This document shows positions 159-54,375 of a stretch of 64,000 nt of DNA, piece by piece. Position numbers and translations under genes: made by a program. Numbering within the stretch: the first letter of the stretch is position 1; every line of letters begins with the position of its first letter. Under the pieces are notes generated by a model, which saw only the letters and a program-made list of their open reading frames with translations, did no database searches and was not told where the DNA came from. Location of the stretch: assembly GCA_963811305.1 (NCBI GenBank), contig CAWEQU010000003.1, forward strand, positions 130,688 to 194,687, read 5' to 3'. Origin of the DNA: an uncultured Chloroflexia bacterium. Its GTDB lineage: Bacteria; Chloroflexota; Chloroflexia; QHBQ01; JADMIH01.

Positions 159-190
159 GACGATGGACGATGGACGAAGGACGAAAGAAA
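159..190. repeat. 7-nt word tandem array (GGACGAT/GGACGAA)
   Basis: Direct reading of ggacgatggacgatggacgaaggacgaaag immediately after the LuxR stop. Confidence 0.8.
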
Positions 191-459
191 CTATCCTTTC
201 CTCGACCAGACTTATTACTTATCCATGCACGAACCTAATGGACGATGGAGGCGTAGAGTTGTAAATCAATTTTGGCATATATTTTGAGAGGATAATTGCA
301 GGGAAAAAGTGATGGGTAATCTTACCCATCCATTTTCTTTTGTCGATTTTTGTAAATTGGGTAATCCTGCTGATGTACCGGGGTAAGCCTGGATGTAGAC
401 TTAGGGCACAAGAAGCAGGCAGAATTAAACGTCACAACCAACCAGAAGGAAACAGGGAA

Positions 460-791
460 ATGAAGAAGCTTTTTACGACACTCATGGCATCAGCAGCGGT
501 CTTGGCAGCAACAGCAGTGGGTGTAGCGCCCGCTAACAAGGGTGATAGTGTAAATTGGGGCGGCGTAAGTCGCGGTACCCAGGGGTCGGTCAACTGGGGC
601 GCACCTGCACCCGGTAATGACAGCGTCAACTGGGGCTTCAACGCCCTGGGCAAGTCGCAGGCCAGCGTGAACTGGGCGCACCTGCACCCGGTAATGACAG
701 CGTCAACTGGGGCTTTCACGCCACCAACACATCGGCCAGCGTGAACTGGGGCGCACCCGCACCTGGTTCGGATAGCGTCAACTGGGGCTAA
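460..791 (+). CDS. Small secreted repeat protein: signal peptide plus about seven SVNWG motifs in ~26-aa units; one apparent -1 frameshift at a G-run near 672
   Basis: MKKLFTTLMASAAVLAATAVGVAPA is a signal peptide. It is followed by DSVNWG...GSVNWGAPAPGNDSVNWGFNALGKSQASVNW. The DNA repeat unit then continues in the -1 frame (GAPAPGNDSVNWGFHATNTSASVNWGAPAPGSDSVNWG*). The second unit has aactggg where the first has aactgggg. An RBS-like aggaaacaggga lies upstream. Confidence 0.55.
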
Positions 792-804
792 AGACAACGG
801 AGTG

Positions 805-850
805 CAATAAGATAGGGCACCTTCCAAGCGGGAGGTGCTCTATTTTTGTT
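805..850 (+). terminator. Rho-independent terminator-like hairpin plus T-run after the SVNWG gene
   Basis: ggcaccttccaagcgggaggtgctc stem-loop followed by tatttttgtttg. Confidence 0.45.
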
Positions 851-1009
851 TGTCGTAAATTCGGATCTTACCGTACAGACCTTCGCTTCAACCTCGGCAG
901 AACTGCTGCTTTGTATGATATAAAGCAGGCATGAATAAAGAAATCTGCTGCTACTGCACGGCGCGTTGGGGGCGAGCGAACAATTCGCGCCCCTTCTCCC
1001 ACTCCTCCA

Positions 1010-1621
1010 GGAGATATAACCTCCACACGCTCGACTTCGAGGGGCATGGCCGTGCGCCTATGCAAGAGCGCCCGTTTCGCATCGAGCACTTCACGGAGAA
1101 CGTCCGCAGCTACCTGGCGCAGCACGCCATCGAGCGCACGCACATATTCGGCTACAGCATGGGCGGGTACGTCGCCTGCACCCTGGCTATCACGCACCCC
1201 GATCTTGTGGCGAGCATAGCGACGCTTGGCACGAAGTTCCACTGGGACCCTCAGACTGCCGAGCGTGAGGTAGGCTTCCTCGACACGGAGAAGATAGCGG
1301 CAAAGGTCCCCCACTTCGCCCGCGCCCTCACCGAGCGCCACACCACATCGGGTTGGGAGGCGGTTGTGAACAAGACCGCCGATCTACTTGTGTCCCTGGG
1401 GGAGGTTAGGGGTCTGCGGGCCGAGAAGCTGGGACAGGTTGCCTGTCGCGTAAGGGTTATGGTAGGTGACCGCAATTCGACGGTTGGCGTACCGGAAGCG
1501 TATGAGGTGTACCGCGCCCTCCCGCAAGGCGAGACTGGAGGTGCTGCCTGGGACGCGGCATGAGCTGGAGAGGGTTGAGGTGGGGAGGTTGGCGGGGGCG
1601 CTGGTGGGGTTCTTTGGGTAA
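1010..1621 (+). pseudogene. alpha/beta-hydrolase fold protein (GYSMGG nucleophile elbow), disrupted by at least two frameshifts; N-terminal HG-box remnant upstream in another frame
   Basis: GHGRAP...IFGYSMGGYVA...DRNSTV matches alpha/beta hydrolase. The C-terminus continues in another frame (ARLEVLPGTRHELERVEVGRLAGALVGFFG*, stop 1619-1621). The N-terminal LLLLHGALGASEQFAPLLPLLQE lies in a third frame at about 942-1015. Confidence 0.55.
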
Positions 1622-1942
1622 GCAGCTATGCTGGGGTCTAAGGCCCAGCTTGCATTAGCTCTCACAACCTATGGAGCAAATATGGACCTACTCTCAAGTT
1701 TATCAGTGGTTCTTGACCAGGGCTTTGTCTTCGTTTGCGCTGTTATGTGGGGCCCGGATATTGCCACATGAGAAGCTGAATATACTGCAATGGGTGTCGT
1801 CGTTACTATCATCTCTTTAGTTCTTGTTGCGTGGTCAGACTAGACAAGGCAGGAAGATCCCCACTTCGCCTGCCCCTTCCCCGATCACAAGCCACTACAG
1901 GATGTTATAATGGCCGCACTGAACCAATAAGGAGTTCCCAGC

Positions 1943-2476
1943 ATGTCAGATACTGTATGGGCCGCCATCATTGCTGTTGCTGGCGCGGTGGGCGGCACAT
2001 TACTCGGCGCCACTCTTTCACACATCTTTACCCTAATGAATAGGCGCGAAGAGGCTGAACGCCTCCGCGACCAATATTTACTCGACATTGAAGTAAAGAA
2101 AATTCAAGATGTATTACTCGCTCTCCACAATGCTACAAACATGATCAGCACGTTCAACCCGGAATCTCCAACCTACGAGAAAGACACATTAACAGAAATC
2201 AACAACTACGGCCAAAGCAACATTGACCTCAACAACCTTCTAGTCGTCACCTTACAATACTTCAAGAAGGAAGAACGCGATGCCATAAATAAAGCACGCA
2301 GGGCAATTCGAGAGCAGTTTGATCTTGCAAATGAACTCCACGAAGCAACACAAAATAACGACGAAGAAAAACGAGACACAATACTCAAAACCCTTGCAGA
2401 ACGCCAACCAAACTGGAGTGATGCTTTCTCGATAGCCATACTTATTGTAGGCACAAACTTCAACCAAGCTATCTAA
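1943..2476 (+). CDS. Hypothetical membrane-anchored protein (N-terminal TM helix plus helical or coiled-coil region), in a low-GC islet
   Basis: ORF with hydrophobic N-terminus WAAIIAVAGAVGGTLLGATL followed by a charged helical region. Local GC is visibly lower than the flanks. Confidence 0.5.
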   Translation: MSDTVWAAIIAVAGAVGGTLLGATLSHIFTLMNRREEAERLRDQYLLDIEVKKIQDVLLALHNATNMISTFNPESPTYEKDTLTEINNYGQSNIDLNNLLVVTLQYFKKEERDAINKARRAIREQFDLANELHEATQNNDEEKRDTILKTLAERQPNWSDAFSIAILIVGTNFNQAI

Positions 2477-2663
2477 AGAAGTAACATAATCAAGGATTCA
2501 CATCACGGCCAGTCCTTACGCGCAGAGGAATGCTTCGCCCCAAAAAGCGGCGCAGGCCAGTGCTAAATCAACCGCGCTCCTCGGGCGACCAGGCCAAGAG
2601 GCAAACAAAACTACACAGGATGCTATATAATACCGAAGCCCCACAATAAAGGAGTCTCAAACT

Positions 2664-3211
2664 ATGTCACCAGAATTCTGGCTCGCTATCATCGGCATCA
2701 GCGGCACCCTGCTCGCAACCATAATCCCCCAGTACTTCACCAGCAAGAAAGACGCCCGTGACCGCCAACAATGGTATGCTGAGTTCGCACTCAAACGCCG
2801 CTACGAAGCACTCAACGATCTCTACGCCAAAGCTACCACGTGCCTCCGCCAAGCTGAAGAGCAGAACCTCCAATTCCGCAAAGAACCTACAGAAGTGATG
2901 CTCGAGCTGTTAATGGGCACCGAGCCGTTCAAGATGCATTCGGCGTCGCCTCAACCTATCTTGACAGCAAAACTACCAGTATCACCGAAAACTTGATCGC
3001 CATTCTTAGCGAATACGTCTTGCTCAGCATGGAAAACGTACAGAAGGCCAGAATAAAAAAAGACTCGCCACCAACTCCCGACGAACTAACCAAACTCGAC
3101 GAAGTCTGGAAAAAGGCCAAATCCTCCCTGTTAGAACTACGCGACGATCTCAAACCTATTCTCAACCCTCCCATAGTGGACCGCTATCTCGAGGACATTT
3201 CACGCTCGTGA
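2664..3211 (+). CDS. Paralogue of the 1943-2476 protein (TM helix plus helical region); apparent frameshift near 2930 joins ORFs 2664-2996 and 2993-3211
   Basis: Same architecture: WLAIIGISGTLLATIIP N-terminal TM, then a helical region. The second ORF extends upstream in-frame as ...AVQDAFGVASTYLDSKTTSITENLIAILSEY. The combined length (~182 aa) matches the paralogue (177 aa). Confidence 0.4.
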
Positions 3212-3298
3212 GACTGAGCAATCGCCTCCTCGTATCTCGGCTCCCTTCCCCTCCTCCCTACGCGCCTCTCTGCAAGTATCTTCCACTTTGCTCGTTGC

Positions 3299-3652
3299 TC
3301 AAAGCCCCTGGCCAGAATGGAGCACTATTCCTCTGGTCATCACCTCTGTAGCGAAGGTGAACTCACGCTCCAAAGCCGACTGTAATTGCCTAGGTTCAAG
3401 CACAAGAATATCCAACGCAAGGGGGTGGTCAACGGCAGCCGCAATATTTGCAGCAGCACGTAATGGCCTGCCTCCAGCCTCCATTATCACGAGCAGGTCT
3501 AAGTCGCTATCTTCTCTTGGCACTCCATACGCATAGGAGCCAAACAAGATCACTTTCTGAGGGTGAAAGCCATTTACGATCTGCTGAACAAGCTTCTGTA
3601 AGACTTCAGAGTGTAACTTAGTTGTAATATCAGCCGTGTTGGTTGAATTCAT
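3299..3652 (-). CDS. Nucleotidyltransferase-domain protein (MNT-type, Pol-beta superfamily); no adjacent HEPN partner detected
   Basis: Motif ILFGSYAYGVPREDSDLDLLVI is the GSxxxGxxxxxSDxDL minimal NTase signature. Confidence 0.7.
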   Translation of the reverse strand: MNSTNTADITTKLHSEVLQKLVQQIVNGFHPQKVILFGSYAYGVPREDSDLDLLVIMEAGGRPLRAAANIAAAVDHPLALDILVLEPRQLQSALEREFTFATEVMTRGIVLHSGQGL

Positions 3653-4645: not shown

Positions 4646-6061
4646 TTATCCGATAGACCCTTCCATCTGCAACTCGATCAGCCTGTTCAGCTCGATTGCG
4701 TATTCCAGCGGGATTTCCTTCGTGATTGGCTCGATGAAGCCGTTGACTACCATCGAAGTGGCTTCATTCTCGGAGATGCCGCGAGACATCAGGTAGAATA
4801 GCTGGTCCTCGCCGACCTTCGAGACGGTGGCCTCGTGCTGTATCGTGGTCGAGTTGTTCGCCACGTTGATGGTCGGGTAGGTGTCGGAGCGGGAGGTGTC
4901 GTCCAGCAGGAGCGCGTCACACTTGACGTTGGCCTTGCAGTGGTGCGCGTCCTCGGCTACCTCAAGGAGGCCACGATAGGTGGCGCGCCCCGTGCCCTTC
5001 GAGATACTCTTGGAGACGACGTTGGAGGTCGTGTAGGGGGCCTTGTGGACCATCTTCGCGCCCGCGTCCTGGTGCTGGCCGTCGCCCGCGAAGGCTACCG
5101 ATAGCACGTCGCCCCGCGCCCCAGGCTCCATCAGCCACACGGCGGGGTACTTCATGGTGAGGCGGCTGCCCAGGTTGCCGTCCACCCACTCCATCGTCGC
5201 GTCGCGGTAGGCAGCGGCACGCTTGGTCACGAGGTTGTAGACGTTGTGCGACCAGTTCTGGATGGTGGTGTAGCGCACTCTCGCGCCTTCCTTGACGATG
5301 ATCTCAACGACGGCAGAGTGGAGCGAGTTGGTTGTGTACGTAGGCGCGGTGCAGCCCTCTACGTAATGGACGTAAGAGCCAGGCTCGGCGATGATGAGCG
5401 TGCGTTCGAACTGGCCCATGTTCTCGGCGTTGATGCGGAAGTACGCCTGTAGAGGCACGTCCACTTTGACGCCTGCGGGGACGTATACGAATGACCCTCC
5501 TGACCACACGGCGGAGTTGAGCGAGGCGAACTTGTTGTCGCCCGCGGGGATGATGGTGGAGAAGTACTCCTTCACGATGTCGGGGTACTCGCGAACTGCC
5601 GTGTCCATGTCGGTGAAGATGACGCCCAGCTCCTCCAGGTCTTCGCGCAGGGAGTGGTAGATTACCTCGGATTCGTACTGAGCGCCCACGCCTGCCAGGT
5701 ACTTCTTCTCGGCCTCCGGTATGCCCAGGCGGTCGAAGGTGTTCTTTACCTCGGCGGGCACGTCGTCCCAGCTTGTGCTGTTTCTGTCCGAAGCCTTCAC
5801 GTAATAATAGATGTCGGAGAAGTCAATGTCGTTCAGCCAGCCACCCCACTGGGGCATCGGCTTGTTCTCAAAGAGGCGCAGGGCGCGCACCCGGAAGCGG
5901 GTCATCCACTCCGGCTCGCCCTTCATCGAGGAAATCTCGCGCACCATGGCTTCGTCCAGCCCCTTGCGGGACTTGAACGCGTAATTCTCCGGCATAGAGA
6001 AGCCATAGCGATAGCCTTCAGTAGCAAGCCCTATCTCAGGGGTCTTTGTCTCAGCAACCAT
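4646..6061 (-). CDS. sufB: Fe-S cluster assembly protein SufB
   Basis: Strong similarity across the full length to SufB (…[19 protein letters not shown]…[14 protein letters not shown]…[10 protein letters not shown]…). Start chosen at MVAETKTP with GGGAGGT RBS upstream. Confidence 0.85.
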
Positions 6062-6218
6062 TTTACTAACCTCCCGGTCCAATACCAGCACGGTTCGTGC
6101 CGCAACCATTCTTTATGTTGTACAATGCTCTGTGTTACTCAGGTATGATACACGTTAAGTATACTCTAAAAATGCCTATTTTTCAATGTTTAGACAGCTT
6201 TAACTGATTTTAGTAGTT

Positions 6219-6279
6219 GGACGATAGACGATAGACGATAGACGATAGACGATAACTTTGAACCTTGAACTTTGAACCC
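6219..6279. repeat. Word arrays: (GACGATA)x5 then (TTGAACC)x3
   Basis: Direct reading ggacgatagacgatagacgatagacgatagacgataactttgaaccttgaactttgaaccc, in the divergent promoter region between sufB and the GT1 gene. Confidence 0.85.
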
Positions 6280-6281
6280 TT

Positions 6282-7379
6282 ATGAACATCGCTCTCGCGC
6301 ATGACGACTTGATACAATATGGTGGGGCCGAGCGTGTGGTGGATGTGCTACACGACATCTATCCCGACGCGCCTTTGTACACCGCTGTGTATGCGAAGGG
6401 GCAGATGCCTGCGCATTACAGGCGATGGAAGATTTACACGTCGTTTATGCAGAAGCTGCCTGGCATAGCTAAATTCCACCAATTGTACCTCCCCCTCTAC
6501 CCTACAGCCTTCGAGACGTTTGACCTGTCGGGGTACGATGTTGTGTTGAGCAGCAGCAGCCGCTTCGCCAAGGGGGTTATCACGGAGGCTGACGCCCTTC
6601 ACGTTTGCTATTGCCATGCGCCGATGCGCTTCGCGTGGAACTACCACAGCTACATGGAGGGGGAGCGCGCCGCGAGCAAAGCGCGCTTCGTCTTGCCCCT
6701 GGTGATGAACTATGTTAGACTCTGGGACGAGGCTTCGGCAGGGCGGGTGGACGCCTATATAGCCAACTCGCTTGTCACCGCTCGCCGCATACGCAAGCGC
6801 TACAGGCGTCAGGCTACGGTCATAAATCCGCCCGTGAATACGAGTTTGTATAAGCCCAGGTCAGACGGTAGCGTGGAAGATTACTTCCTGATTGTGTCGC
6901 GCCTGATACCGTACAAGCGGATAGACCTCGCGGTGGACGCCTTCAGCAAGCTGGGTCTGCCTCTGAAGATTGTGGGGAAGGGACGGCAGGAAGCGGAGTT
7001 GCGGGCAAGAGCCGGGTCCAATATAGAGTTCGTAGGCTCGGTATCGGACGAGAGGCTCAAGGCTCTGTACGCGGGGTGCAAAGCGTTCATCTTTCCGGGG
7101 GAGGAGGACTTCGGCATATCGCCCCTGGAGGCGCAAGCGTCAGGCCGTCCAGTGATAGCATACGGCGCGGGCGGCGCGCTCGAAACGGTTGTGCCTGGCG
7201 TGACCGGCGCGTTCTTCAGCGAGCAGACACCGGACGCCCTGGCCGAGACCGCCAGCCGATTCAACCCGCGACTGTACGATCCATCCGCCATACGCCGCCA
7301 CGCCGAAGGCTTTGATACAGAGGTGTTCAAGCGGAAAATAGCGGAATTTGTTGGACGGACGACGGACGATGAAACGTGA
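6282..7379 (+). CDS. Glycosyltransferase family 1 (GT4-type)
   Basis: C-terminal EEDFGISPLEAQASGRPVIAYGAGG is the GT1 E-x7-E motif region. The last 6 codons (TTDDET*) are encoded by a word array. Confidence 0.8.
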   Translation: MNIALAHDDLIQYGGAERVVDVLHDIYPDAPLYTAVYAKGQMPAHYRRWKIYTSFMQKLPGIAKFHQLYLPLYPTAFETFDLSGYDVVLSSSSRFAKGVITEADALHVCYCHAPMRFAWNYHSYMEGERAASKARFVLPLVMNYVRLWDEASAGRVDAYIANSLVTARRIRKRYRRQATVINPPVNTSLYKPRSDGSVEDYFLIVSRLIPYKRIDLAVDAFSKLGLPLKIVGKGRQEAELRARAGSNIEFVGSVSDERLKALYAGCKAFIFPGEEDFGISPLEAQASGRPVIAYGAGGALETVVPGVTGAFFSEQTPDALAETASRFNPRLYDPSAIRRHAEGFDTEVFKRKIAEFVGRTTDDET

Positions 7380-7476
7380 AACGTGAAACGTGATGACGGA
7401 GTACATACTTCCATAAAATAAACTCTGCGAACTCTGCGTCTCTGCGGTGAATTTACTTTCTGTCGTCCGTCGTCAA
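7354..7476. repeat. Word arrays (GACGGAC, GAAACGT) plus a conserved ~80-bp composite element (copy 1)
   Basis: Region gagtacatacttccataaaataaactctgcgaactctgcgtctctgcggtgaatttactttctgtcgtccgtcgtc is near-identical to 57690-57773 and ends with the inverted word TCGTCCGTCGTC. It lies in the 5' leader of the wzz-like gene. Confidence 0.8.
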
Positions 7477-7488
7477 AAAAGGAGAATC

Positions 7489-8229
7489 ATGGAGTTACGG
7501 CAATACTGGAACGTCATAATGAGAAGGCGGTGGCTGGTGCTGGCTATCGCGGTGCTGGCTACGTTGTTCAGCGCCTTTTCGTTCTTCACTTCGGTCAGGC
7601 AATACAAGGCTGAGACTATCTTTACGGTCAGACAGCAGAATACCCCAACCGATCCGACGAAGATATTCACATTCAATGACTACTACAACTGGATCGCTTC
7701 AGAGTACCTCGTTGACGACTATACGCAGATCGTAGAGAGCGATGCGTTTGGGCAGAGCGTACTTGACACCATCAAGAAAGAGGTGCCCGCGGGCAACATA
7801 GTAGTCAGCGACACCACGAAGCTCATGGTCGAAGTTGATAGGATGAGGCCTAAGAACGTTAGCGACGTCGTAGGCGCGGAGCGCCGTCACAGGGAGTTGC
7901 GCGTCTTCGCTGAAACTTCAAGCAGGGACCTCACTAAAGCTATATTGGAAGGATCGAGCATCGTGCTCACCGAAGGTCTGATGAAAGTCTATAGAGGCGA
8001 GAATACGGACAGACCGATTATCGCGCAGATAAACACCGTGACTAATGACGACATGACCTCAAGCGTGTCTAAGGACATTACCAACGCGATAATCCGCGTA
8101 ATCATGGGCCTGGTCGCCGCCCTTGCTATAGCCTTCTTGCTTGAATACCTCGATAATAGTGTCCGGGACGAAAGGGACGCTCGTAAAGTGCTCGATCTTC
8201 CTGTGATTGGGGCGATACCGAGGACGTAG
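7489..8229 (+). CDS. Polysaccharide co-polymerase (Wzz/CpsC-like chain-length determinant), paralogue 1
   Basis: Strong RBS aaaggagaa. N-terminal TM, and C-terminal TM plus LEYLDNSVRDERDARKVLDLPVIGAIPR tail typical of CpsC/Wzz PCP-2b proteins. Confidence 0.65.
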   Translation: MELRQYWNVIMRRRWLVLAIAVLATLFSAFSFFTSVRQYKAETIFTVRQQNTPTDPTKIFTFNDYYNWIASEYLVDDYTQIVESDAFGQSVLDTIKKEVPAGNIVVSDTTKLMVEVDRMRPKNVSDVVGAERRHRELRVFAETSSRDLTKAILEGSSIVLTEGLMKVYRGENTDRPIIAQINTVTNDDMTSSVSKDITNAIIRVIMGLVAALAIAFLLEYLDNSVRDERDARKVLDLPVIGAIPRT

Positions 8230-8270
8230 TTCAAGGTTCAAAGTTCAAGGTTCAAGGCTCAAGGCTCGAG
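8230..8270. repeat. (TTCAAGG)n word array, inverted relative to 8722-8770
   Basis: gttcaaggttcaaagttcaaggttcaaggctcaaggctcgagg. Confidence 0.85.
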
Positions 8271-8280
8271 GAGTGAGCAC

Positions 8281-8754
8281 ATGACGAGTGCCCGGCAGTT
8301 TGAGGAACTTGAAGTCTGGAAGAAGGCACGATTAGTAACAAGAGAGATATATGCTGTAAGCTCGAAGGGCGCATTTTCACGGAACTTCGGCCTTTGTGAT
8401 CAAATTCAGCGGGCAGCTGTATCCGTAATGTCCAATATTGCAGAAGGATTTGAGCGAGAAGGCAACAAAGAGTTTCGACAGTTTCTTGCCCTAGCAAAAG
8501 GCTCCGCAGGTGAAATTCGCTCCCAGCTATATGTCGCACTGGACGCGGGCTTCCTTCAACAAAGTGAGTTTCAGCAGCTATATAACTCTGTAATCGAATT
8601 GAGCCGTCTCATAGCAGGTTTGATGCGTTACCTCAATGCCTCTGATTACAAAGGAAACAAATTTAAGGAAGCTTCAGGTCCAGAGTACCACACAGAAGGT
8701 CCCGACAGTCAGCTAGAGCGTCTTGAACCTCGAACCTCGAACTTTGAACCTTGA
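8281..8754 (+). CDS. Four-helix-bundle protein (TIGR02436; former 23S rRNA intervening-sequence protein family)
   Basis: EELEVWKKARLVTREIYAV...FGLCDQIQRAAVSVMSNIAEGFEREGNKEFRQFLALAKGSAGEIRSQL matches the family consensus. The C-terminal tail is encoded by the TTGAACC array. Confidence 0.7.
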   Translation: MTSARQFEELEVWKKARLVTREIYAVSSKGAFSRNFGLCDQIQRAAVSVMSNIAEGFEREGNKEFRQFLALAKGSAGEIRSQLYVALDAGFLQQSEFQQLYNSVIELSRLIAGLMRYLNASDYKGNKFKEASGPEYHTEGPDSQLERLEPRTSNFEP

Positions 8755-8770
8755 ACTTTGAACTTTGAAC
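8722..8770. repeat. (TTGAACC/TCGAACC)n word array
   Basis: cttgaacctcgaacctcgaactttgaaccttgaactttgaactttgaac. Confidence 0.85.
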
Positions 8771-9475
8771 AAACACATGCAGCTTGACCTGAGACAAATA
8801 TGGAGCGGCCTGCGTAAGCGGTGGTGGCTGGCGTTGTTGGTGATGCTGTCGGCTGCCGCCGTCGCGTACCTTTACACCAATGCACAGCCGCGTGTGTATC
8901 AGGCGCAGGTGACACTTGTGGCAAAGCCTGTACCTCCTGATAATGGTCTCATAGAGGCGATCAAGAAAACTATGAGCACCTACGCCCAGGAGCTGGGGAG
9001 CAAGAGCCTCTGGACGTCTGTGGTAGATGGTAATTTGATGCGCACGGTGGACCTGAGCGCATTGTCCGGCCAGATAAAGGTGCAGCCACGTCCCGACCAA
9101 AACTCACTCGTTATGACGGTGGATAATCAAGACAGTGTGTTGGCCGCACAGATAGCAGAGGCTATCTCGCAGGCGTTCGTGGAGCGCCAGACCGCAGAGA
9201 ACCAGGCTCTGGCGAGTGGTAATAAGGTCGTGTGGGTGATAGCCCAGGCTGCCGAAGTGCCCTCTCAGCCCTACCAGCCTCGCCCGCTCTTGTATGCGGG
9301 TGCGGCGGCTTTATTTGGCCTTATACTCGGCCTTCTATTGGCAATTGGGCTTGAGTTGCTGGACACGACGATTAAGACTCCTGCGGATATCAAGCAGTAT
9401 ACGGAGCTTAACACGCTGGGGATAATTCCACGTGCTAGCAAGGACGAAGGACGAAGGACGAAGGACGACGGATAG
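8765..9475 (+). CDS. Polysaccharide co-polymerase (Wzz/CpsC-like), paralogue 2
   Basis: N-terminal TM (WWLALLVMLSAAAVAYLY), and C-terminal TM plus LELLDTTIKTPADIKQYTELNTLGIIPR. The final residues (KDEGRRTKDDG*) are encoded by the (GGACGAA)n array. Confidence 0.6.
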   Translation: MNKHMQLDLRQIWSGLRKRWWLALLVMLSAAAVAYLYTNAQPRVYQAQVTLVAKPVPPDNGLIEAIKKTMSTYAQELGSKSLWTSVVDGNLMRTVDLSALSGQIKVQPRPDQNSLVMTVDNQDSVLAAQIAEAISQAFVERQTAENQALASGNKVVWVIAQAAEVPSQPYQPRPLLYAGAAALFGLILGLLLAIGLELLDTTIKTPADIKQYTELNTLGIIPRASKDEGRRTKDDG

Positions 9476-9528
9476 GGATTCTCTATCACCTATTACCAGC
9501 TACCAGCCACTAACTACCGGAGGGACAA

Positions 9529-10233
9529 TTGGCAAGACGAGTCAAAACTAAGGAAGAGAGCAGCGCGGGCCTGGTTGCCCTTACGGAGCCGAGGTCGGCG
9601 GCGGCGGAGGCGTTTCGCGCTTTGCGGACCAATATTCAGTTCGCCAGCCCCGATAAGCCTGTGCATACCATACTGGCGACCTCTACCAGTCCCGATGACG
9701 GCAAATCCACGACCATCGCCAATCTTGCGATAACGTTCGCCGCCGCCGGGTCGCCTACGATATTGGTAGACGCCGATTTGCGCCGCCCGCACCTGCACAA
9801 GCTCTTCGGCCTCTCCAACGAATCGGGCCTTACTACTCTCGTGACGGAGATGGCGCGCAAGGATGGGGGCCAGGACGTTGACCTGCCTTTGCAGGATACG
9901 GAAGTGCCTAATCTGCAGGTGCTGACGAGTGGACCTGTGCCGCCTAACCCCGCCGAGATATTGGCTTCGCAGCGCATGGCCGATATACTGGCCCTCCTCC
10001 GTAACAAAGCTGAATACGTGCTGATAGATACCCCTCCCGTGATCGCCGTGACGGATGCAGCCGTGCTGGCTCCCCGCGTAGATGGAGTCTTCCTGGTGTT
10101 AAATGCAGGTAAGACGCGACGCGACCTTGCCTCTAAAGCACGCGACATCCTCCGGCAAGTAAACGCCAACCTCCTGGGCGTAGTGCTGAACAACGCCAAG
10201 CTCGATAAGAGCGCGTACGAGTATTATGGCTAG
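9529..10233 (+). CDS. BY-kinase (CpsD/CapB-type tyrosine-protein kinase); putative TTG start
   Basis: Walker A PDDGKSTT, Walker A' VDADLRRP, Walker B VLIDTPP. Lies downstream of the CpsC-like genes. Confidence 0.8.
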   Translation: MARRVKTKEESSAGLVALTEPRSAAAEAFRALRTNIQFASPDKPVHTILATSTSPDDGKSTTIANLAITFAAAGSPTILVDADLRRPHLHKLFGLSNESGLTTLVTEMARKDGGQDVDLPLQDTEVPNLQVLTSGPVPPNPAEILASQRMADILALLRNKAEYVLIDTPPVIAVTDAAVLAPRVDGVFLVLNAGKTRRDLASKARDILRQVNANLLGVVLNNAKLDKSAYEYYG

Positions 10234-10312
10234 GAATCAGGAGTCAGGAATCAGTAGAATATGAGTCCTAATCCCTGATTCCTGACTCCTGACCCCTAAT
10301 CCCTGACCCCTA
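10234..10312. repeat. Inverted word arrays forming a hairpin (GAATCAG/GAGTCAG with CTGATTC/CTGACCC)
   Basis: ggaatcaggagtcaggaatcag...aatccctgattcctgactcctgacccctaatccctgacccc, between the kinase and the phosphatase. Confidence 0.85.
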
Positions 10313-10314
10313 AA

Positions 10315-11094
10315 GTGATAGACATCCACACTCATATCATCCCTGACCTCGATGATGGGCCGCCCGATATGAAGACTTCGGTTGGTATGGGGCGCGTGGC
10401 GGCTGAGGAAGGGATAGAGGCTATCATCTCCACATCGCATAGCGAAGAAGCCTCCAATGTAGGGCTTGAAGCTATGCAGGCACGCTTGCTGGCTGTGCAG
10501 GGAGCGTGGGTCGCGGCGGGATTGAATATACGCCTTGAGCTGGGGGTGGAGATTTTCTTGCGACCTGACACGCCCGCTGCTCTCAAGTCGGGCGCGCTCT
10601 GGACGCTTGCGGGAAGCCGGTACGTATTGGTCGAAACTCCGTACCAGCCGTGGCCCACCTACGCCGACCAGACGCTATTCAACCTGCAACTGGCTGGATA
10701 CATCCCTATCCTCGCCCACCCTGAACGCTATATCCCTATTCAAAATGACCCCAACCGCATGTATGCTCTTGTGGAGAGGGGTGTGCTGGCGCAGGTGACG
10801 GCAGCCGCGCTCCTGGGCGAGCATGGGCCTGCATCGAGGCGATGCGCCGAGACGTTGGTGCGTCACAACCTGGCTCATTTCCTTGCGTCGGACGCTCACG
10901 GGCTGACGGTGCGGAGGCGTATGCCGCAATTGCGCGAAGCGTTGAGAGTCGCTGAAGGATTGGTAGGTGCGGAAGCTGCTCGTGCGTTAGTTCAGGACAA
11001 CCCTGCAAGGATACTTGCGAATATGCCTCTCGAAGTCACCCCTGAAAGGGTAAGCGGGAAGAAGTGGTCTTTAGGGGGCCTGTTCAGAGGCTAA
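10315..11094 (+). CDS. PHP-family protein-tyrosine phosphatase (CpsB/YwqE-type); GTG start
   Basis: N-terminal VIDIHTHIIPDLDDGP matches the CpsB MIDIHxHILPGxDDG motif. Confidence 0.75.
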   Translation: MIDIHTHIIPDLDDGPPDMKTSVGMGRVAAEEGIEAIISTSHSEEASNVGLEAMQARLLAVQGAWVAAGLNIRLELGVEIFLRPDTPAALKSGALWTLAGSRYVLVETPYQPWPTYADQTLFNLQLAGYIPILAHPERYIPIQNDPNRMYALVERGVLAQVTAAALLGEHGPASRRCAETLVRHNLAHFLASDAHGLTVRRRMPQLREALRVAEGLVGAEAARALVQDNPARILANMPLEVTPERVSGKKWSLGGLFRG

Positions 11095-11141
11095 GAATCT
11101 GTTCAAGAACAGAGTTGAGACGAGAGCGCCTATCAATAACG

Positions 11142-11252
11142 AAGCACTATTCTGCCTGTCATTCTGAGCGAAGCGAAGAATCTCCGAGCTTGGACGTGTG
11201 GGGGCAGCTTTAGATTCTTCGCTTCGCTCAGAATGACAGGCAAAAGCGTATT
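11142..11252. repeat. Long perfect hairpin element, GTCATTCTGAGCGAAGCGAAGAATCT family (copy 1)
   Basis: cctgtcattctgagcgaagcgaagaatctcc...loop...agattcttcgcttcgctcagaatgacagg. Related copies at 37938-38032 and 63071-63096. Confidence 0.85.
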
Positions 11253-11303
11253 GTTCTTAAATAGCCTTTTAGGAAAGCGTCTTACTTAAGGGTAACGATG
11301 CGA

Positions 11304-11567
11304 TTATCGCGGGAGCGCAGCCCTTATTTTTGTTTCAAGCTCCTCGATCTCTTGCATCACCTGTTTATGAGGCACCAGGATTGCTGTGCCTGAGCGGTAA
11401 TCTTGCAAGGCCTCCCTGACTGCCTCAACTTGCCATGATTGCTCATCTACGTAGTTTATTATCGCTTGCTCAATAACCCACGATTTAGGACGCTCCATTG
11501 AGGCAGCGAGCGCATCTAACTTGGCAGCAAGCTCATCTTCTAAGTAGATAAATATGATTTTTGGCAT
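11304..11567 (-). CDS. Ribbon-helix-helix (CopG/ParD-like) small DNA-binding protein
   Basis: 87 aa. N-terminal IIFIYLEDELAAKLDALAASMERPKSWVIEQAI is the RHH pattern. No toxin partner found. Confidence 0.45.
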   Translation of the reverse strand: MPKIIFIYLEDELAAKLDALAASMERPKSWVIEQAIINYVDEQSWQVEAVREALQDYRSGTAILVPHKQVMQEIEELETKIRAALPR

Positions 11568-13756: not shown

Positions 13757-14251
13757 TTATTGCTCTTTCAAAGGCTCAGAGAATAGGAGCCAGGCGAAGT
13801 TTATGCCGAGGAATATCATCGCTGAGAAGAGGATACCCTCTAGCTCCAGGGGCTGGAGGGCGATACCCAGGTCTTGCCCCACCTCCGGTCTCAACGCGAT
13901 CAGGGTTATGAGTGCATACAAAGGCACCGTTATCCATTGCACCACGCGGGGTATCTGTATACTTTCTTCCTCTACCTTTACGGCGTTGATGACTATCACG
14001 GTGGCAATCATACCAACCAGTCCAGCAATACCGAAGGTCACTTGCCACAGGTATCTGGCGTCACCGGCGATGAGGGCTACAAGGGACATCATTCCTGGCA
14101 CGAGGAAGTAGAGCGACACTGCGTGCGCCATCCGCCGGTATCCCGGTTTTCGCATCCACTCTGCATGTCTGAACTGCACCACGGCCCACCAGAATCCCAG
14201 GAGGGTAAAACATAACTGTGCAGTGGTGGCGTAAAAGGTCTCTACGGACAT
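13757..14251 (-). CDS. Hypothetical polytopic membrane protein (~4 TM)
   Basis: Hydrophobic ORF. Start chosen at MSVETFY. The upstream part of the six-frame ORF is translation of the (GACGATA/GGACGAT) array (SIVHRPSS...). Confidence 0.45.
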   Translation of the reverse strand: MSVETFYATTAQLCFTLLGFWWAVVQFRHAEWMRKPGYRRMAHAVSLYFLVPGMMSLVALIAGDARYLWQVTFGIAGLVGMIATVIVINAVKVEEESIQIPRVVQWITVPLYALITLIALRPEVGQDLGIALQPLELEGILFSAMIFLGINFAWLLFSEPLKEQ

Positions 14252-14263
14252 ACCTTTGCTCTC

Positions 14264-14351
14264 GGACGATAGACGATAGACGATAGACGATAGACGATGG
14301 ACGATGGACGATGGACGATGGACGATGGACGATGGACGATGGACGATAGAC
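14264..14351. repeat. (GACGATA)x4 plus (GGACGAT)x7 word array
   Basis: Direct reading. Confidence 0.9.
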
Positions 14352-14511
14352 CATGAAGTCAATAAAAGGATAGCATATTGTGGGGTGGGTGGCGAGTTCT
14401 AGCCGATAAATGAAAGAGGTGTTGGGCGCGCCCAACACCTCTTTCATATGTAGATACAGAGTGTAGGTACAGGAATTGGACTTTCGCTTACGGGTTTGCA
14501 CACGCCTGCTG

Positions 14512-17320: not shown

Positions 17321-17747
17321 GTTGGGCGCAGGGAAATGATGGTTGGATGTGCAAAAACCATTGACACCACCCTATGGCGGGTGTAACATCCGCACACCTC
17401 AAGGCCGGGCACGTAACTCGGCGGCGTACGGAAATATGAAGCGAAGCAAGGGTTATTGGAAAGTGGAAAGGGTTGCCCCTATGCGTACCGACTGGATATT
17501 GTTTACATTGCTGGGTCTGCTATGGCTAGGGGCCGGGGGCATACACCTGAGATTGCCACGCCGTCAAAAGGACCAATCGCCGGAGATAGAGGAGTGAAAC
17601 GTGACGACGGACGATAGACGATAGACGATAGACGATAGACGATAATGTCTGATGCGTGATACGTAAGTCTATTGCCTAGCGCATAAACTCTTATAAAATC
17701 TTAGCGTTCTTGGTTATCTTTGCGTCTTGGCGTTTAATAATCACGCA

Positions 17748-19059: not shown

Positions 19060-19137
19060 GGACGAAAGATGAAGGACGATAGACGATAGACGATAGACGA
19101 TAGACGATAGACGACGGACGACGGACGACGGACGATT
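19060..19137. repeat. (GACGATA)n plus (GACGGAC)n word array upstream of murA
   Basis: Direct reading. Confidence 0.9.
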
Positions 19138-31172: not shown

Positions 31173-31236
31173 TGTGGACGATAGACGATAGACGATAGAC
31201 GACTAGATTTTACCGCAGAGACGCAGAGTTCGCAGA
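31173..31236. repeat. (GACGATA)n array plus inverted partial copy of the composite element (CCGCAGAGACGCAGAGTTCGCAGAG)
   Basis: Reverse complement of the ctctgcgaactctgcgtctctgcgg core seen at 7420-7450 and 57705-57730. Confidence 0.75.
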
Positions 31237-31297: not shown

Positions 31298-31963
31298 ATG
31301 AAGATAGTTATCCTGGGTAGCGGGCGCGTGGGAGCGCGGTTGGCTCAGCTGATGGAGGCTGATGGTCACGATGTCAATATTATTGACGGCGACAAGGCCT
31401 CTTTCGACCGGCTGCCCGACAGCTTCAAGGGGAGGACGATACTGGGCACAGGCATAGACGTAGACGTGCTCAAGTCCGCCGGTATCGAGAACGCCGATGC
31501 TTTTGCCGCCGTTACGAACTTCGACAATACCAATATCATGGCGTGCCAGGTTGCTAAGGAGATATTTGGCGTCAGGAAGGTGCTGGCGCGCATTTACGAT
31601 CCTGGGCGCGAGCAGCTTTATCATGAGCTTGGGCTGGAGACGATCTGCCCCACTACCCTCATATCTACCACCTCCCGCGACATATTGCTGGCGGCAGATG
31701 GGGTGGAGATATTACAGATGCCGCCACACATAGGGGGTCCCAAGCTGAATGTAACTCCCATCATGTCCTCCGCTACTACCCCGCTATCGAGCGATGAGCA
31801 TGAAGGGCACAGGCCCATGTCTCAACCTGCTCGAACGCAGGCTGATAGCGATAACCGCCCTGGACAGCAAGCATCGCAGGGTCTCCAGCCCAATGGTGGA
31901 GATGAGCAAGGGGAGCGCTCGCCCAATAATGGGCGTGGGTTGAGGGGGATATTCAAGCATTAG
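31298..31963 (+). CDS. TrkA-N (NAD-binding) domain protein with low-complexity C-terminal extension
   Basis: MKIVILGSGRVGARLAQLMEADGHDVNIIDGD is the Rossmann GxGxxG motif. RBS ggaggaagggg. Confidence 0.65.
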   Translation: MKIVILGSGRVGARLAQLMEADGHDVNIIDGDKASFDRLPDSFKGRTILGTGIDVDVLKSAGIENADAFAAVTNFDNTNIMACQVAKEIFGVRKVLARIYDPGREQLYHELGLETICPTTLISTTSRDILLAADGVEILQMPPHIGGPKLNVTPIMSSATTPLSSDEHEGHRPMSQPARTQADSDNRPGQQASQGLQPNGGDEQGERSPNNGRGLRGIFKH

Positions 31964-32048
31964 GAATTAGGAATCAGGAGTCAGGAATGAGTAGATGGAC
32001 TCGGCCACTAATTGCTACTAACTCCTGGCTCCTGATTTCTGATTCCTG
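31962..32048. repeat. Inverted GAATCAG/CTGATTC word arrays forming a hairpin
   Basis: ggaattaggaatcaggagtcaggaatgag…actcctggctcctgatttctgattcctgg. Confidence 0.85.
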
Positions 32049-32743: not shown

Positions 32744-32774
32744 TGGGACGACAGACGATGGACGATAGACGAGG

Positions 32775-36136: not shown

Positions 36137-36262
36137 GTGAAACGTGATGATGGACGAAAGACGAAAGACGAAAGACGGATTAAACGCCAAGACGCCAAGA
36201 TTACGAAGGACGCCAAGATTATTTATGGGTATTAGCCGCAGAGACGTAGAGGTCTTATGGTA
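36137..36262. repeat. Word arrays (GAAACGT, GGACGAAA, CGCCAAGA) plus partial inverted composite element (GCCGCAGAGACGTAGAG)
   Basis: Direct reading. ATTAAACGCCAAGACGC also occurs inverted at 17718-17735. Confidence 0.75.
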
Positions 36263-39293: not shown

Positions 39294-39367
39294 GTGGACG
39301 ATGGACGATGGACGATAGACGATGGACGATGGACGATGGACGGTGAAGTGAAACGTGAAACGTGAGG
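39294..39367. repeat. (GGACGAT)n plus (GAAACGT)n word array upstream of the NTase-like gene
   Basis: Direct reading. Confidence 0.9.
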
Positions 39368-39891: not shown

Positions 39892-40031
39892 CCGCTGTAC
39901 GGCACGGTCGCAGTTGCGACCCCCGACGTTCGCGTTGAAGTGCAGGTGGAGCTTTAGACTGGACGATAGACGATAGACGATAGACGATAGACGACGGAGG
40001 GCAGCAGGTTGGGGTAAGGTTTGGGTAGGTT

Positions 40032-47742: not shown

Positions 47743-48713
47743 TGAACGACGCATTGCCACTCCTTTGTTACTTTGAAGGTAAGGTTATGCCTCTCAGCGA
47801 GGCTAAAGTGGGCATACTTACCCACGCCCTGAGCTACGGAACCGGATGTTTCGAGGGCATACGAGCCTATTACAATAAAGAGCAGGACCAGCTCTACGGC
47901 TTTCGCGTGCGCGAGCATTACGAGCGCTTGCAGCAATCAAGCCGCGTCCTGCTTATGGACCTCCCCCATTCGCCGGAGCAACTCGTAAGTATCACTAACG
48001 ACCTGCTGAGACGCAGTGGCATCCGCCAGGACGCATATATGCGTCCTATGGTTTACAAGGCTGACGAAGTCATAGGAGTCAGGCTGCACAATCTCCGCAC
48101 CGAGATGTATGTCACGGTACAGCCCTTTGGCAATTACATAGACATAGACCGCGCTCTCGAAGTGGGCGTATCTTCCTGGAAGCGTATTGACGACAATATG
48201 ATACCGGCCCGCGCCAAGATAACGGGTACATACGTCAACTCAGCCTTCGCCAAGAGCGAAGCCAACATGAATGGCTTCGATGAGGCGATTATGCTAGACC
48301 ACGCTGGGCACGTTTCGGAAGGCTCCGCCGAGAACTTATTCATGATACGTAACGGTGTAGCCTACACACCGCCCGTCACCGAGAACATACTTGAGGGGAT
48401 CACCCGCCTCACGATTATGACCTTGCTGAGCGAAGAGCTGCATATCCCGCTTGTCGAGCGCGTCATAGACCGTACGGAGCTATATGTCTGCGACGAGCTA
48501 ATACTGTGCGGCACGGGCGCGCAGATAGCCCCCGTAGGCTCGGTAGACCACCGCCCCGTCGGCAATGGCGGCGTGGGTAAGATAGGCCATGCGCTCCAGG
48601 AGCTTTATTTTGATGTGGTACGTGGCAATGTACCAAAGTACAAAGAGTGGTGCAGCCCCGTTTATGCAGAAGCTCGCCGCCCCGCCGACGTGCGAATGGC
48701 AGTAGCCTCATAA
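47743..48713 (+). CDS. ilvE: Branched-chain amino acid aminotransferase (class IV PLP enzyme)
   Basis: Full-length BCAT similarity incl. EGSAENLF and catalytic Lys region. Confidence 0.8.
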
Positions 48714-48770
48714 TTTTGGATTTTGGATTTTCGATTTCGATAGTTGATCCAAAATCCAAAATCCAAAATC
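48714..48770. repeat. Inverted TTTTGGA/TCCAAAA word arrays (hairpin) between ilvE and the bPH gene
   Basis: ttttggattttggattttcgatttcgatagttgatccaaaatccaaaatccaaaatc. Confidence 0.85.
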
Positions 48771-53705: not shown

Positions 53706-53780
53706 TAAGAAGTTAGAAGTTAGAGATTAGAAGCTAGAAGCTGATGATCAGATTTCTAACTTCTAACTTCTGATTTCTAC
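53706..53780. repeat. Inverted AGAAGTT/AACTTCT word arrays (hairpin) between yajQ and rimO
   Basis: agaagttagaagttagagattagaagctagaagctgatgatcagatttctaacttctaacttctgatttctac. Confidence 0.85.
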
Positions 53781-54295: not shown

Positions 54296-54375
54296 TGAAG
54301 GAAAAGGGAAAAAGGATAAATTACAACCATAAATGTATTTGCATTTATCCTTTATCCCTTTTCCTTTTTCCTTTA
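54296..54375. repeat. Inverted AAAGGGA/AAAAGGA word arrays (hairpin)
   Basis: gaaggaaaagggaaaaaggataaat…atttatcctttatcccttttcctttttcctt. Confidence 0.8.

Follow-up and report, generated by a model that had tools for sequence, protein, structure and literature searches.

A four-helix-bundle gene framed by inverted heptamer arrays in a Chloroflexia capsule operon, with a probable likeness to rRNA intervening sequences

Six plus-strand genes fill positions 6282-11094 of the stretch analysed here, a 64-kb piece of DNA from an uncultured Chloroflexia bacterium (hereafter the window, with positions counted from its first nucleotide). A domain profile search of the window proteins identified a glycosyltransferase (GT1) that opens the conserved block, two CpsC/Wzz-type polysaccharide co-polymerases (wzz1 and wzz2), a CpsD-type bacterial tyrosine autokinase (BY-kinase) and a CpsB-type PHP tyrosine phosphatase, with a small gene for a four-helix-bundle (4HB) protein between the two wzz genes (Table 1). 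This 4HB gene and the tandem heptamer arrays on either side of it, together called the cassette below, are the subject of this study. A first-pass annotation of the same DNA had described the gene order, the 4HB gene and the arrays, and its coordinates proved accurate to within 1-2 nt. The encoded protein is a clear member of both PF05635 (121.8 bits, cut-off 33.8) and TIGR02436 (111 bits, cut-off 24). Its closest solved homologue is PDB entry 2GSC (XCC0516, 5 chains; E 2.2e-14 over residues 4-116), and 2RLD was also matched (E 0.0069); the pentamer was seen in 2GSC, not in the window protein itself. The gene has a Shine-Dalgarno sequence, GAGGAG, at 8268-8273, 7 nt before the ATG and half within the upstream array. 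At its other end the stop usual after ...KFK has been lost, and the tail following ...YKGNKFK extends 26 nt into the downstream array.

Tandem Repeats Finder reported period-7 arrays at 8229-8264 (GTTCAAG, 5.1 copies), at 8722-8770 (CTTGAAC, 7.0 copies) and at 6254-6278. The first two are the arms of the cassette, and a repeat search paired 8229-8271 with 8728-8770 as a 43-nt inverted repeat that is 88% complementary with a spacing of 456 nt. The arms begin at the wzz1 stop codon and leave no more than 6 nt free ahead of wzz2: the final base of the wzz1 TAG (8227-8229) doubles as the first base of the upstream arm, and the 6 nt between the downstream arm and the wzz2 ATG hold no Shine-Dalgarno sequence. 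When 8200-8800 was folded as RNA, the arms paired end to end around the whole open reading frame (ORF) in both the minimum free energy (MFE) and the centroid structure. The two-unit 14-mer TTCAAGGTTCAAGG, with up to 2 mismatches, has 12 matches in the window, all within the three arrays, compared with 0.28 expected from shuffles; none of 100 shuffles reached 12.

The third array of this word, which the first-pass annotation had also noticed upstream of the locus, has the orientation of the downstream arm and lies just 5′ of the GT1 start, where it adjoins a (GACGATA)5 array at 6220-6254. A stretch of 21 nt in it matches the complement of 8235-8255 perfectly (100%) at a distance of 1956 nt, whereas the real partner arm reaches only 88%. 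It is present in the closest relative (locus L001, below) and in none of the relatives without the 4HB gene, and it may be what is left of a further cassette or may offer the upstream arm another sequence to pair with. A comparable three-array layout was seen at locus L028.

The coding sequence of the cassette has changed less than its arms. Comparison with L001, whose 4HB ORF stops earlier than that of the window, gave a dN/dS of 0.043 (18 synonymous and 3 non-synonymous changes), a pattern indicating that the protein is functional and under strong purifying selection. Moreover, dS was 0.22 for the 4HB gene (window 8281-8700 against L001 8775-9194) and 0.42-0.63 for all five neighbouring genes, and in a sliding comparison the 4HB ORF was the best conserved stretch of the locus (93-97% identity) and the arrays the worst. 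The low dS points to either a constraint on the RNA or a coalescence of the cassette younger than that of its surroundings. A recent recombination that imported the cassette together with its flanks was considered and rejected, as no extended conserved block reaches into wzz1 or wzz2 in the comparison with L001. There is only one 4HB gene in the window and no second copy of the cassette. The domain profile search found no transposase, integrase or reverse transcriptase in or beside the cassette, and the PADLOC defence models gave 0 families at E ≤ 0.01 for the 4HB protein. Rfam found no rRNA within 6000-11500, where its only matches were sub-threshold and meaningless ones of plant and animal miRNA precursors to a hairpin at 10228-10303.

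Table 1. Genes, cassette arms, hairpins and heptamer arrays of the window
Feature	Position	Strand	Basis or content
GT4/GT1-family glycosyltransferase (GT1)	6282-7379	+	PF00534 E 7.4e-25
wzz1, CpsC/Wzz-type polysaccharide co-polymerase	7489-8229	+	PF02706 E 9.2e-10, TIGR01006 E 8.2e-16
Upstream (5′) arm	8229-8271	+	~6 units: GTTCAAG GTTCAAA GTTCAAG GTTCAAG GCTCAAG GCTCGAG G
4HB protein gene, 157 aa, core domain aa 8-119	8281-8754	+	PF05635 E 1.8e-35, TIGR02436 E 3.2e-32
Downstream (3′) arm	8722-8770	+	7 units, CTTGAAC / CTCGAAC / TTTGAAC; reverse complement of upstream arm
wzz2, second CpsC/Wzz paralogue	8777-9475	+	PF02706 E 5.5e-8, TIGR01006 E 5.1e-13
CpsD-type BY (tyrosine) autokinase	9529-10233	+	TIGR01007 E 1.7e-59
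CpsB-type PHP tyrosine phosphatase	10315-11094	+	PF19567 E 1.5e-56
Third array of the cassette word	6254-6278	+	(CTTTGAAC/CTTGAAC)~3.6
GT1-wzz1 spacer hairpin	7358-7474	+	inverted (GACGRAC)/(GTCGTCC) arrays, ~70-nt loop, -40.3 kcal/mol
Kinase-phosphatase spacer hairpin, gene-less	10231-10313	+	inverted heptamers AGGAATC/AGGAGTC vs GATTCCT/GACTCCT; RNA fold
Inverted-pair hairpin	31953-32048		RNA fold
Inverted-pair hairpin	48713-48770		RNA fold
Inverted-pair hairpin	53706-53778		RNA fold
Inverted-pair hairpin	54298-54374		RNA fold
(GACGATA)-type array	159-186	+	
(GACGATA)-type array	6220-6254	+	
(GACGATA)-type array	14265-14348	+	
(GACGATA)-type array	17603-17644	+	
(GACGATA)-type array	19075-19130	+	
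(GACGATA)-type array	31177-31197	+	
(GACGATA)-type array	32747-32767	+	
(GACGATA)-type array	36153-36173	+	
(GACGATA)-type array	39297-39338	+	
(GACGATA)-type array	39962-39996	+	
(GACGATA)-type array	53268-53295	+	
(GACGATA)-type array	57619-57681	+	
(GACGATA)-type array	57742-57762	-	

The same package was then sought around other 4HB genes. Thirty two relatives of the 4HB protein were aligned, and the alignment fetched 80 metagenomic loci whose proteins are 46-63% identical to the query. The score of each locus was that of the best inverted repeat pairing the 150 nt ahead of the start codon with the region around the stop codon, and 73 loci were testable in this way. The first-pass annotation had proposed to look for other 4HB genes flanked by inverted word arrays, and these are common: inverted heptamer arrays (score of at least 28) surround the gene in 60 of the 73, against 3 of 540 controls in which that geometry was placed at random within these loci, with median scores of 41 and 16, respectively. 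Several loci below the threshold still carry arrays beside the gene, either at contig ends or beyond the region searched. Tandem heptamer arrays make up the arms of every positive locus and have a median length of 32-33 nt; the commonest number of units is 5 and typical numbers are 4-5, given a detection threshold that drops arrays shorter than ~3.4 units. Heptamer arrays as such occur at 0.25 per kb in the related Chloroflexia loci and at 0.12 per kb in the metagenomic loci, and much of the latter background itself adjoins a 4HB gene. Named carriers include Dissulfurirhabdus thermomarina (Desulfobacterota), a Nitrospinae metagenome-assembled genome (MAG) and a Chloroflexota MAG. Of the metagenomic loci, 20 were tested for an rRNA context and none had one. 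A search of viral contigs gave one distant match, without heptamer arms; the family is almost absent there, and no link to phages emerged.

A closer inspection of the arms revealed a conserved unit. GT is present in 58 of the 60 arm consensus units; once the units are phased on it, position 3 is a pyrimidine in 58/58, position 4 is a pyrimidine in 54/58 and positions 6-7 are mostly purines. The resulting consensus, GT-Y-Y-M-A-R, covers GTCCAAA (13 loci), GTTTCAA, GTTCCAA and the GTTCAAG of the upstream arm in the window, and it is found in loci spanning 38-68% GC. As the consensus unit stands in the 5′ arm and its reverse complement in the 3′ arm, the orientation of the element with respect to the gene is fixed. 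Where a single unit departs from the consensus, the change is mirrored in the opposite arm in 94 columns and confined to one arm in 148, whereas a rough estimate puts the number of mirrored columns expected under independence at ~8. Therefore, the arms are true mirror copies and not two independent microsatellites. At locus L025, gene-less hairpins with words of the 4HB type were seen beside full cassettes.

The position of these cassettes is also consistent. The upstream neighbour is co-directional in 41 of the 49 loci with enough upstream sequence, and in 39 of these 41 the start of the arm falls within -8 to +12 nt of the upstream stop codon. Between the downstream arm and the next start codon there is mostly a gap of a few nt, with downstream neighbours co-directional in 27 loci and opposite in 12. 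Since operon spacers are short, this adjacency to the stop codon may reflect insertion into tight junctions and not recognition of the stop codon. The gene pairs that are split are functionally coupled and include brxC-pglX of the bacteriophage exclusion (BREX) system in D. thermomarina, OppB-OppC-type permeases (Nitrospinae), the components of an efflux pump of the membrane fusion protein/resistance-nodulation-division type, an ABC sugar-binding protein and its ATPase, GspE-GspF, NusB-PHP and two transketolase halves. Many cassettes have stayed at orthologous junctions while the flanks diverged to 60-85% identity and the 4HB proteins to 60-78%. In some groups of such junctions the word has changed in both arms (GTTCAAA/GTCTCAA/GTCCAAA/GTTTCGA in one group, GTCACGA/GTCCAAG/GTTCAAG in another), and the cassettes are long-term residents whose arms covary.

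Two observations on these loci stand apart. In L090 (D. thermomarina, 2943-3480) and L033 the cassette lies between brxC/pglY and the pglX methyltransferase gene of BREX, with arms built of GTCCAAA or GTCACGA, and the 4HB genes so placed could be mistaken for BREX components. In L014 the 3′ end of a group II intron (RF00029, 55.9 bits, 338-413) lies ahead of a cassette (422-886), only 8 nt from its upstream arm; this single case is of interest because homologues of Avd, the accessory protein of diversity-generating retroelements (DGRs), work with reverse transcriptases.

We sought more distant members by searching plasmids with the 4HB core domain (tblastn), which gave 24 proteins of 26-54% identity, mainly from cyanobacteria and Riemerella. 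Six of these loci were inspected. In Riemerella (L095) the gene follows the stop codon of an Fe-S accessory gene and is flanked by inverted GGTTCAA/GGTTTAA arrays, and on plasmids of Nostoc ATCC 53789 (L094) and Calothrix (L096) the inverted arrays are built of other words. A Nostoc 7120 plasmid (L097) has heptamers on both sides that are not complementary, and plasmid pPg_01 of Pseudanabaena galeata (L098, 1340-2000) has direct arrays, (AAAGCTA)~16 and (AAAGCCA)~10, around a 4HB gene between cas6 and cas4. A survey of CRISPR loci lists '23S rRNA IVP' among the proteins associated with adaptation modules (PMC10910872); the arrangement in L098 suggests that this association may be an insertion of the same type and not a functional partnership.

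The remaining locus connects the family with the intervening sequences (IVSs) of rRNA. In Azospirillum lipoferum 4B (L099) the 4HB relative lies inside a 23S rRNA gene (Rfam LSU 283-3336), ~1200 nt in, the region where the helix-45 IVSs lie. Its arms are inverted and heptamer-like (...CAGAGGA CGGATGA CAGAGGA CGGAGGA... and ...TCCGTCC TCTGTCT TCTGTCA TCCGTCT...), which upholds the connection with rRNA intervening sequences drawn in the first-pass annotation. The Coxiella IVS has an S23p ORF in its loop, a 28-bp terminal stem with RNase III cleavage inside it, and three tandem GACAGAT heptamers before the ORF whose copy number varies between strains (PMC4990558). In the same paper Warrier et al. 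cite the homopentameric toroid of 2GSC, and it is the only precedent we found for heptamers at such elements (PMC4990558). The window element shares the terminal inverted-repeat stem, the S23p-family ORF in the loop and the heptamers of the 5′ arm. However, it lies between wzz1 and wzz2 and not in helix 25 or 45 of 23S rRNA, the location that defines an IVS. On this sequence evidence it has the architecture of an IVS and is a variant outside rRNA; as it is not in rRNA, it is not filed as an IVS member. In the full-text literature we found no account of heptamer-array arms as a trait of the 4HB family at large, nor any of IVS-type elements in the mRNA spacers of operons, a search that left subscription journals mostly uncovered, so that an earlier report of either is possible. 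As far as could be found, the cassette is thus an instance of a widespread and apparently undescribed variant of the IVS kind.

The history of the junction was followed in related genomes. A scan for the BY-kinase, with one genome per species, gave eight loci (L001-L008) from Chloroflexia or Chloroflexota MAGs at 78-94% identity, L001 being the closest (94%). The gene order CpsC-CpsD-CpsB is kept in all eight, and the longer block GT1-wzz1-wzz2-kinase(-PHP) in L001, L002, L004, L005, L007 and L008. Among these six, the 4HB gene is found in L001 and is missing from L002, L004, L005, L007 and L008. The cassette is therefore, as first proposed, a discrete insertion between the Wzz paralogues. The accompanying proposal, that the insertion had duplicated or split the CpsC activator gene, did not hold. 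Wzz1 and Wzz2 are 22% identical, and each is far closer to its own orthologues (43-93% for Wzz1, 63-96% for Wzz2) than to its neighbouring paralogue, and so the two-wzz state is ancestral and no gene was duplicated or split. Orthologues of wzz1 occur in all the relatives, and L004 and L008 have both wzz genes without arrays or a 4HB gene, an arrangement that the first-pass annotation had named as a refutation of its proposal. The window carries a separate BY-kinase and PHP phosphatase after its Wzz/CpsC genes, in keeping with a CpsB/CpsC/CpsD module of the Gram-positive type; this regulatory module is ordinary and its two CpsC-type genes are the ancestral state of the clade.

Without the cassette, the wzz1-wzz2 spacer takes several forms. 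It measures 13 nt in L004 and ~40 nt in L008, in both cases with no arrays, and has one weak array in L007. In L002 it reads TAG-(TCCAAAG)3-TCG-8 nt-(CTTTGGA)4-...ATG and in L005 TAA-(TTTTGAA)3-loop-(TTCAAAA)4-...ATG, both being gene-less hairpins in which inverted heptamers around a short loop span the interval between the stop and the start codon, and the word of L002 is one base off the TTCAAAG units of the window. No Shine-Dalgarno sequence precedes wzz2 in any relative. Given this and the 13 nt from stop to start in L004, the tight junction into which the cassette was inserted is probably translationally coupled. The insertion is recent: from the distribution of the gene among these sequences, it entered this old junction in the lineage of the window and L001.

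Hairpin arrays are not restricted to this junction. The one between kinase and phosphatase, which the first-pass annotation had noted in the window, is real, and counterparts are present in L001, L002, L004, L005 and L006, with a different word each time and a period of 8 in L006. Indeed, nearly every spacer of the operon in the clade carries a short-loop hairpin of inverted heptamers. The first-pass view of the inverted arrays as the boundary of a cassette therefore stands as far as the bracketing of the 4HB gene goes; it fails in that such arrays are not exclusive to the cassette, most operon spacers having them and the very same spacer of L002 and L005 holding a hairpin with no gene. The spacers of this clade are fast-evolving foldback arrays, one of which, in the window and L001, loops a 4HB gene. 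Gain of the gene by a hairpin already present in the ancestor of the window, L001, L002 and L005 is slightly favoured by parsimony, as it takes two events against three for an old cassette with two losses. Loss of the gene from an old, full cassette in L002 and L005 is plausible because the linkage of gene and arms is near-universal elsewhere.

Other spacers of this operon have gained DNA too. In L003 the kinase-phosphatase spacer (763-1452) has arms GGGGTGA GGGGTGA TGGG... and ...CACCTATCACCCAATACCCAACACCC with an insert of ~650 nt between them, which contains no 4HB gene and a hydrophobic ORF on the opposite strand; it suggests that the loops of hairpin arrays can accept other DNA. In L004 the GT1-wzz1 spacer (7582-8347) has an extra ORF of ~200 aa, by eye a putative N-acetyltransferase, followed by a (GAGAAAC/GAGAAAT)n hairpin array, another gene gain at a spacer of this operon.

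Taken together, these data make it very probable that the feature is a PF05635 4HB gene held in the loop of a long stem of inverted heptamer arrays, an element of IVS type residing in an operon spacer. How it works can be outlined as follows. The cassette would be transcribed by read-through from wzz1, which would place both arms on one RNA, where they would pair as a stem of ~43 bp and loop out the insert of ~450 nt. The looping-out would restore the closeness of the wzz1 stop codon to the wzz2 start codon, which has no Shine-Dalgarno sequence of its own, and expression of the flanking genes would survive the insertion. The near-perfect duplex of ~43 bp would also be a substrate of RNase III, as in the rRNA IVSs, and cleavage would release an RNA coding for the 4HB protein. 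The conserved GT-Y-Y-M-A-R unit and the typical number of 4-5 units suggest recognition of the repeats by the pentameric 4HB protein: for a phased repeat of ~5 units, the product of the gene in the loop would be the most parsimonious reader. The part played by RNase III and looping-out is put forward tentatively, as one candidate mechanism; the explanation as a whole, which blends the identity of the feature with this mechanism, we regard as moderately probable.

Several points weigh against this explanation. A substrate for RNase III does not by itself explain the conserved period and unit consensus, as any sequence would do. Transition mismatches in the stems comprise 57 of the G:U type and 61 of the A:C type (p = 0.78), so that there is no wobble bias and no sign of selection for pairing of the sense RNA over upkeep at the DNA level, where template switching between the arms or the way the element is copied may maintain their complementarity. 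The direct arrays of L098 and the non-complementary arrays of L097 mean that the stem is not universal in the family. Comparison by eye of the filled spacers (window and L001) with the empty ones (L004 and L008) showed no target-site duplication. Lastly, a scan of the operon for promoters and terminators gave counts at shuffle expectation and was uninformative on transcription.

Two other readings share much of this evidence. In the first, the arrays are iterons: the heptamers would be putative sites for the 4HB pentamer on RNA or single-stranded DNA, with one unit per subunit and the stem secondary, and the cassette would be a domesticated regulator that controls its own processing, stability or coupled translation and that of the operon genes on either side. 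This overlaps with the preferred explanation and does not exclude it. The fixed polarity of GT-Y-Y-M-A-R relative to the gene across such a range of GC, the modal 5 units per arm beside the 5 chains deposited for 2GSC, the retention of cassettes at diverged orthologous junctions and the purifying selection on the protein all speak for it, as do the distant members whose direct or non-complementary arrays still flank the gene with heptamers on both sides. The homologous Avd, moreover, acts in a complex with reverse transcriptase on structured RNA in DGRs. However, loci whose proteins are 50-60% identical have words that differ at 3-4 of 7 positions, and ~5 units may simply reflect a preferred stem of ~30 bp, seen through a threshold that removes arrays of fewer than ~3.4 units. 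We consider iterons a possible but rather doubtful account of the whole.

The second reading places the element at the DNA level, as a foldback mobile element resembling a miniature inverted-repeat transposable element (MITE), in which the arrays are terminal inverted repeats serving movement or maintenance by template switching, the gene-less hairpins are non-autonomous derivatives, the 4HB protein is a mobility factor or cargo, and RNA folding is a by-product. It would account for a cassette that is present in the window and L001 and absent from the same junction in the next relatives, for gene-less hairpins with 4HB-type words beside full cassettes (L025) and at the orthologous spacer (L002), and for unit variants mirrored in register between arms. 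The lack of a G:U bias is what DNA copying would leave, the low dS of the 4HB gene relative to its flanks is compatible with a younger coalescence, and the architecture recalls the Foldback elements of eukaryotes. What it lacks is a motor and a trail: no transposase, integrase or reverse transcriptase accompanies the cassette, no target-site duplication was seen by eye, the 64 kb hold a single cassette, and viral contigs almost never carry the family. Many cassettes, moreover, are inherited vertically at one junction over long periods, the divergence of the 4HB protein tracking that of the flanks. This reading we likewise judge unlikely as a full explanation, while taking it seriously.

A coincidence, that is, a small gene that happens to lie between two hypermutable heptamer microsatellites in an array-saturated genome, gains some colour from the density of arrays in the window and related loci (0.39 and 0.25 per kb) and from the hairpins in most operon spacers. 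It is very improbable, however, since the same bracketing recurs in 60 of 73 relatives from unrelated metagenomes with a background of 0.12 arrays per kb and in named Desulfobacterota, Nitrospinae, Bacteroidota, Cyanobacteria and Alphaproteobacteria, with a specific word family, GT-Y-Y-M-A-R. Duplication or splitting of the CpsC activator gene on insertion can be dismissed as wholly improbable: two Wzz/CpsC-type genes do flank the cassette, but they are anciently diverged paralogues, adjacent and intact in five relatives without it (L004 and L008 without any arrays), and each has a hydrophobic, apparently membrane-spanning stretch at both its N and its C terminus and a C-terminal kinase-activating tail motif (both judged by eye).

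The remaining arrays of the window put the cassette in context. At a GC content of 57%, the window contains ~25 heptamer arrays outside the cassette (0.39 per kb); arrays alone are unremarkable here, and the non-random part is the bracketing of the 4HB gene. They are of two kinds, single arrays, chiefly (GACGATA)n, and close inverted pairs that fold into hairpins. The kinase-phosphatase hairpin runs from the TAG stop codon of the kinase to the GTG start codon of the phosphatase, with its inverted repeat at 10231-10298 and an MFE of -38.5 kcal/mol for the fold of 10228-10316. In the GT1-wzz1 hairpin the loop core TCTCTGCGGTGAATTTACTTTC, 22 nt long, is identical at 7439-7460 and 57720-57741, where 0 such matches are expected by chance. 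The surrounding spacers, 7354-7476 and 57614-57762, share one build, (GACGRYR)n, ACTTCC.TAAAATAA..CTCTGCG..TCTCTGCGGTGAATTTACTTTC, (GTCGTCC)n, and both fold into long hairpins; the GT1-wzz1 spacer of L001 is built in the same way. This architecture looks like a second, gene-less family of foldback elements. The arrays of the (GACGATA)/(GGACGAT) type show ~13 in one orientation and 1 in the other, with neighbouring genes on both strands, a bias that suggests a link to replication direction or another polar process and not to transcription.

Arrays also extend into genes. In wzz2, an (AAGGACG)4.7 array at 9440-9472 supplies the final 11 codons (KDEGRRTKDDG). A (GGACGAT)13 array at 14264-14355 encodes the first ~30 codons of the mechanically called ORF 13757-14362 (SIVHRPSSIVHRPS...), and because these codons are array, the real start probably lies downstream of it. 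Just 3′ of the PHP gene, 11150-11245 holds a 34-nt inverted repeat that is 97% complementary with a 28-nt loop (TTCTGCCTGTCATTCTGAGCGAAGCGAAGAATCT...). It is not built of heptamers and is probably an operon-end hairpin or a member of another repeat family; L001 has a different hairpin at the matching spot.

To our knowledge, PF05635 ('four helix bundle protein') is a large bacterial family with no assigned function outside DGRs, and the origin of the ORF-bearing rRNA intervening sequences has, as far as we know, been an open question since ~1990. The present data bear on both. IVS architecture is not a peculiarity of rRNA, since the same package sits in ordinary operon junctions of many phyla; the inverted repeats that form its arms are not arbitrary, being phased arrays of a conserved heptamer unit; and gene-less versions fill neighbouring spacers, while the package can persist at one junction across great evolutionary distances as both arms switch word together. 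A vague label, 'selfish element', thereby becomes a testable handle on the function of the 4HB family. For annotation, small 4HB genes that split BREX, cas, transporter or capsule operons need not be parts of those systems. More speculatively, and with the chances rather against it, the 4HB pentamers of PF05635 might be dedicated partners that read, and perhaps propagate, heptamer repeats, together forming an ancient, self-insulating foldback element of harmless transcribed junctions. If true, such an element would colonise operon spacers and rRNA helices alike, wherever an insert that is looped out or excised by RNase III does no harm. It would then account for the origin of the ORF-bearing rRNA IVSs, for the function of thousands of stand-alone 4HB genes and for at least part of the heptamer microsatellites of cyanobacteria, Chloroflexia and others, among them arrays of the short tandemly repeated repetitive (STRR) type and gene-less hairpins.

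Several known systems invite comparison. An integron cassette was considered and rejected, with no integrase or attC found. A transposable element or MITE was likewise set aside within the 64 kb, which contain no transposase domain, one 4HB copy and no apparent duplication. Avd, the accessory protein of DGRs, has a pentameric four-helix-bundle fold homologous to that of the window protein. PF05635 is the commonest Pfam family beside DGR reverse transcriptases, and Avd is homologous to it (PMC10053308). A DGR was nevertheless rejected here: the window operon has no reverse transcriptase, and the repeats within 6100-11300 are arrays and not a template/variable pair.

Among repeats, the Foldback transposons of eukaryotes have long terminal inverted repeats of short tandem units, some with coding loops and many with arms only. 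Their hosts belong to another domain of life and a relationship with a transposase is known for them, whereas the window cassette shows no sign of transposition. The Correia elements of Neisseria (NEMIS, cleaved by RNase III), the repetitive extragenic palindromic sequences and bacterial interspersed mosaic elements (REP/BIME) and the enterobacterial repetitive intergenic consensus (ERIC) are co-transcribed intergenic hairpin repeats or MITEs, and the gene-less hairpins at 10231-10313 and in the L002 and L005 spacers resemble them as inverted repeats in operon spacers. Those elements are dispersed copies of one consensus with target-site duplications, whereas the arms described here are heptamer arrays whose word varies by spacer and genome, and some loops bear genes. 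The STRR heptamers of heterocystous cyanobacteria and the TAACTGA repeats of Beggiatoaceae are intergenic, frequently adjoin start codons and reach high numbers in certain lineages (PMC4679880). They too are tandem heptamers, and such arrays flank the 4HB genes of cyanobacterial plasmids; in contrast to the cassette arms, they have been described as direct repeats and assigned no function, and the searchable literature on them held no link to 4HB genes or inverted pairing.

The closest likeness is to the 23S rRNA IVSs of Coxiella burnetii, Leptospira, Azospirillum and others. These also carry an S23p/PF05635 ORF in the loop of a terminal inverted-repeat stem of ~28-45 nt and have tandem heptamers in the 5′ arm, with a unit copy number that varies between strains. 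The window copy differs in lying between protein-coding genes of an exopolysaccharide operon and, relative to the Coxiella IVS, in its unit (GTTCAAG in place of GACAGAT). The Coxiella ORF, moreover, is decaying and probably untranslated, whereas the 4HB gene of the window is under purifying selection and has a good Shine-Dalgarno sequence.

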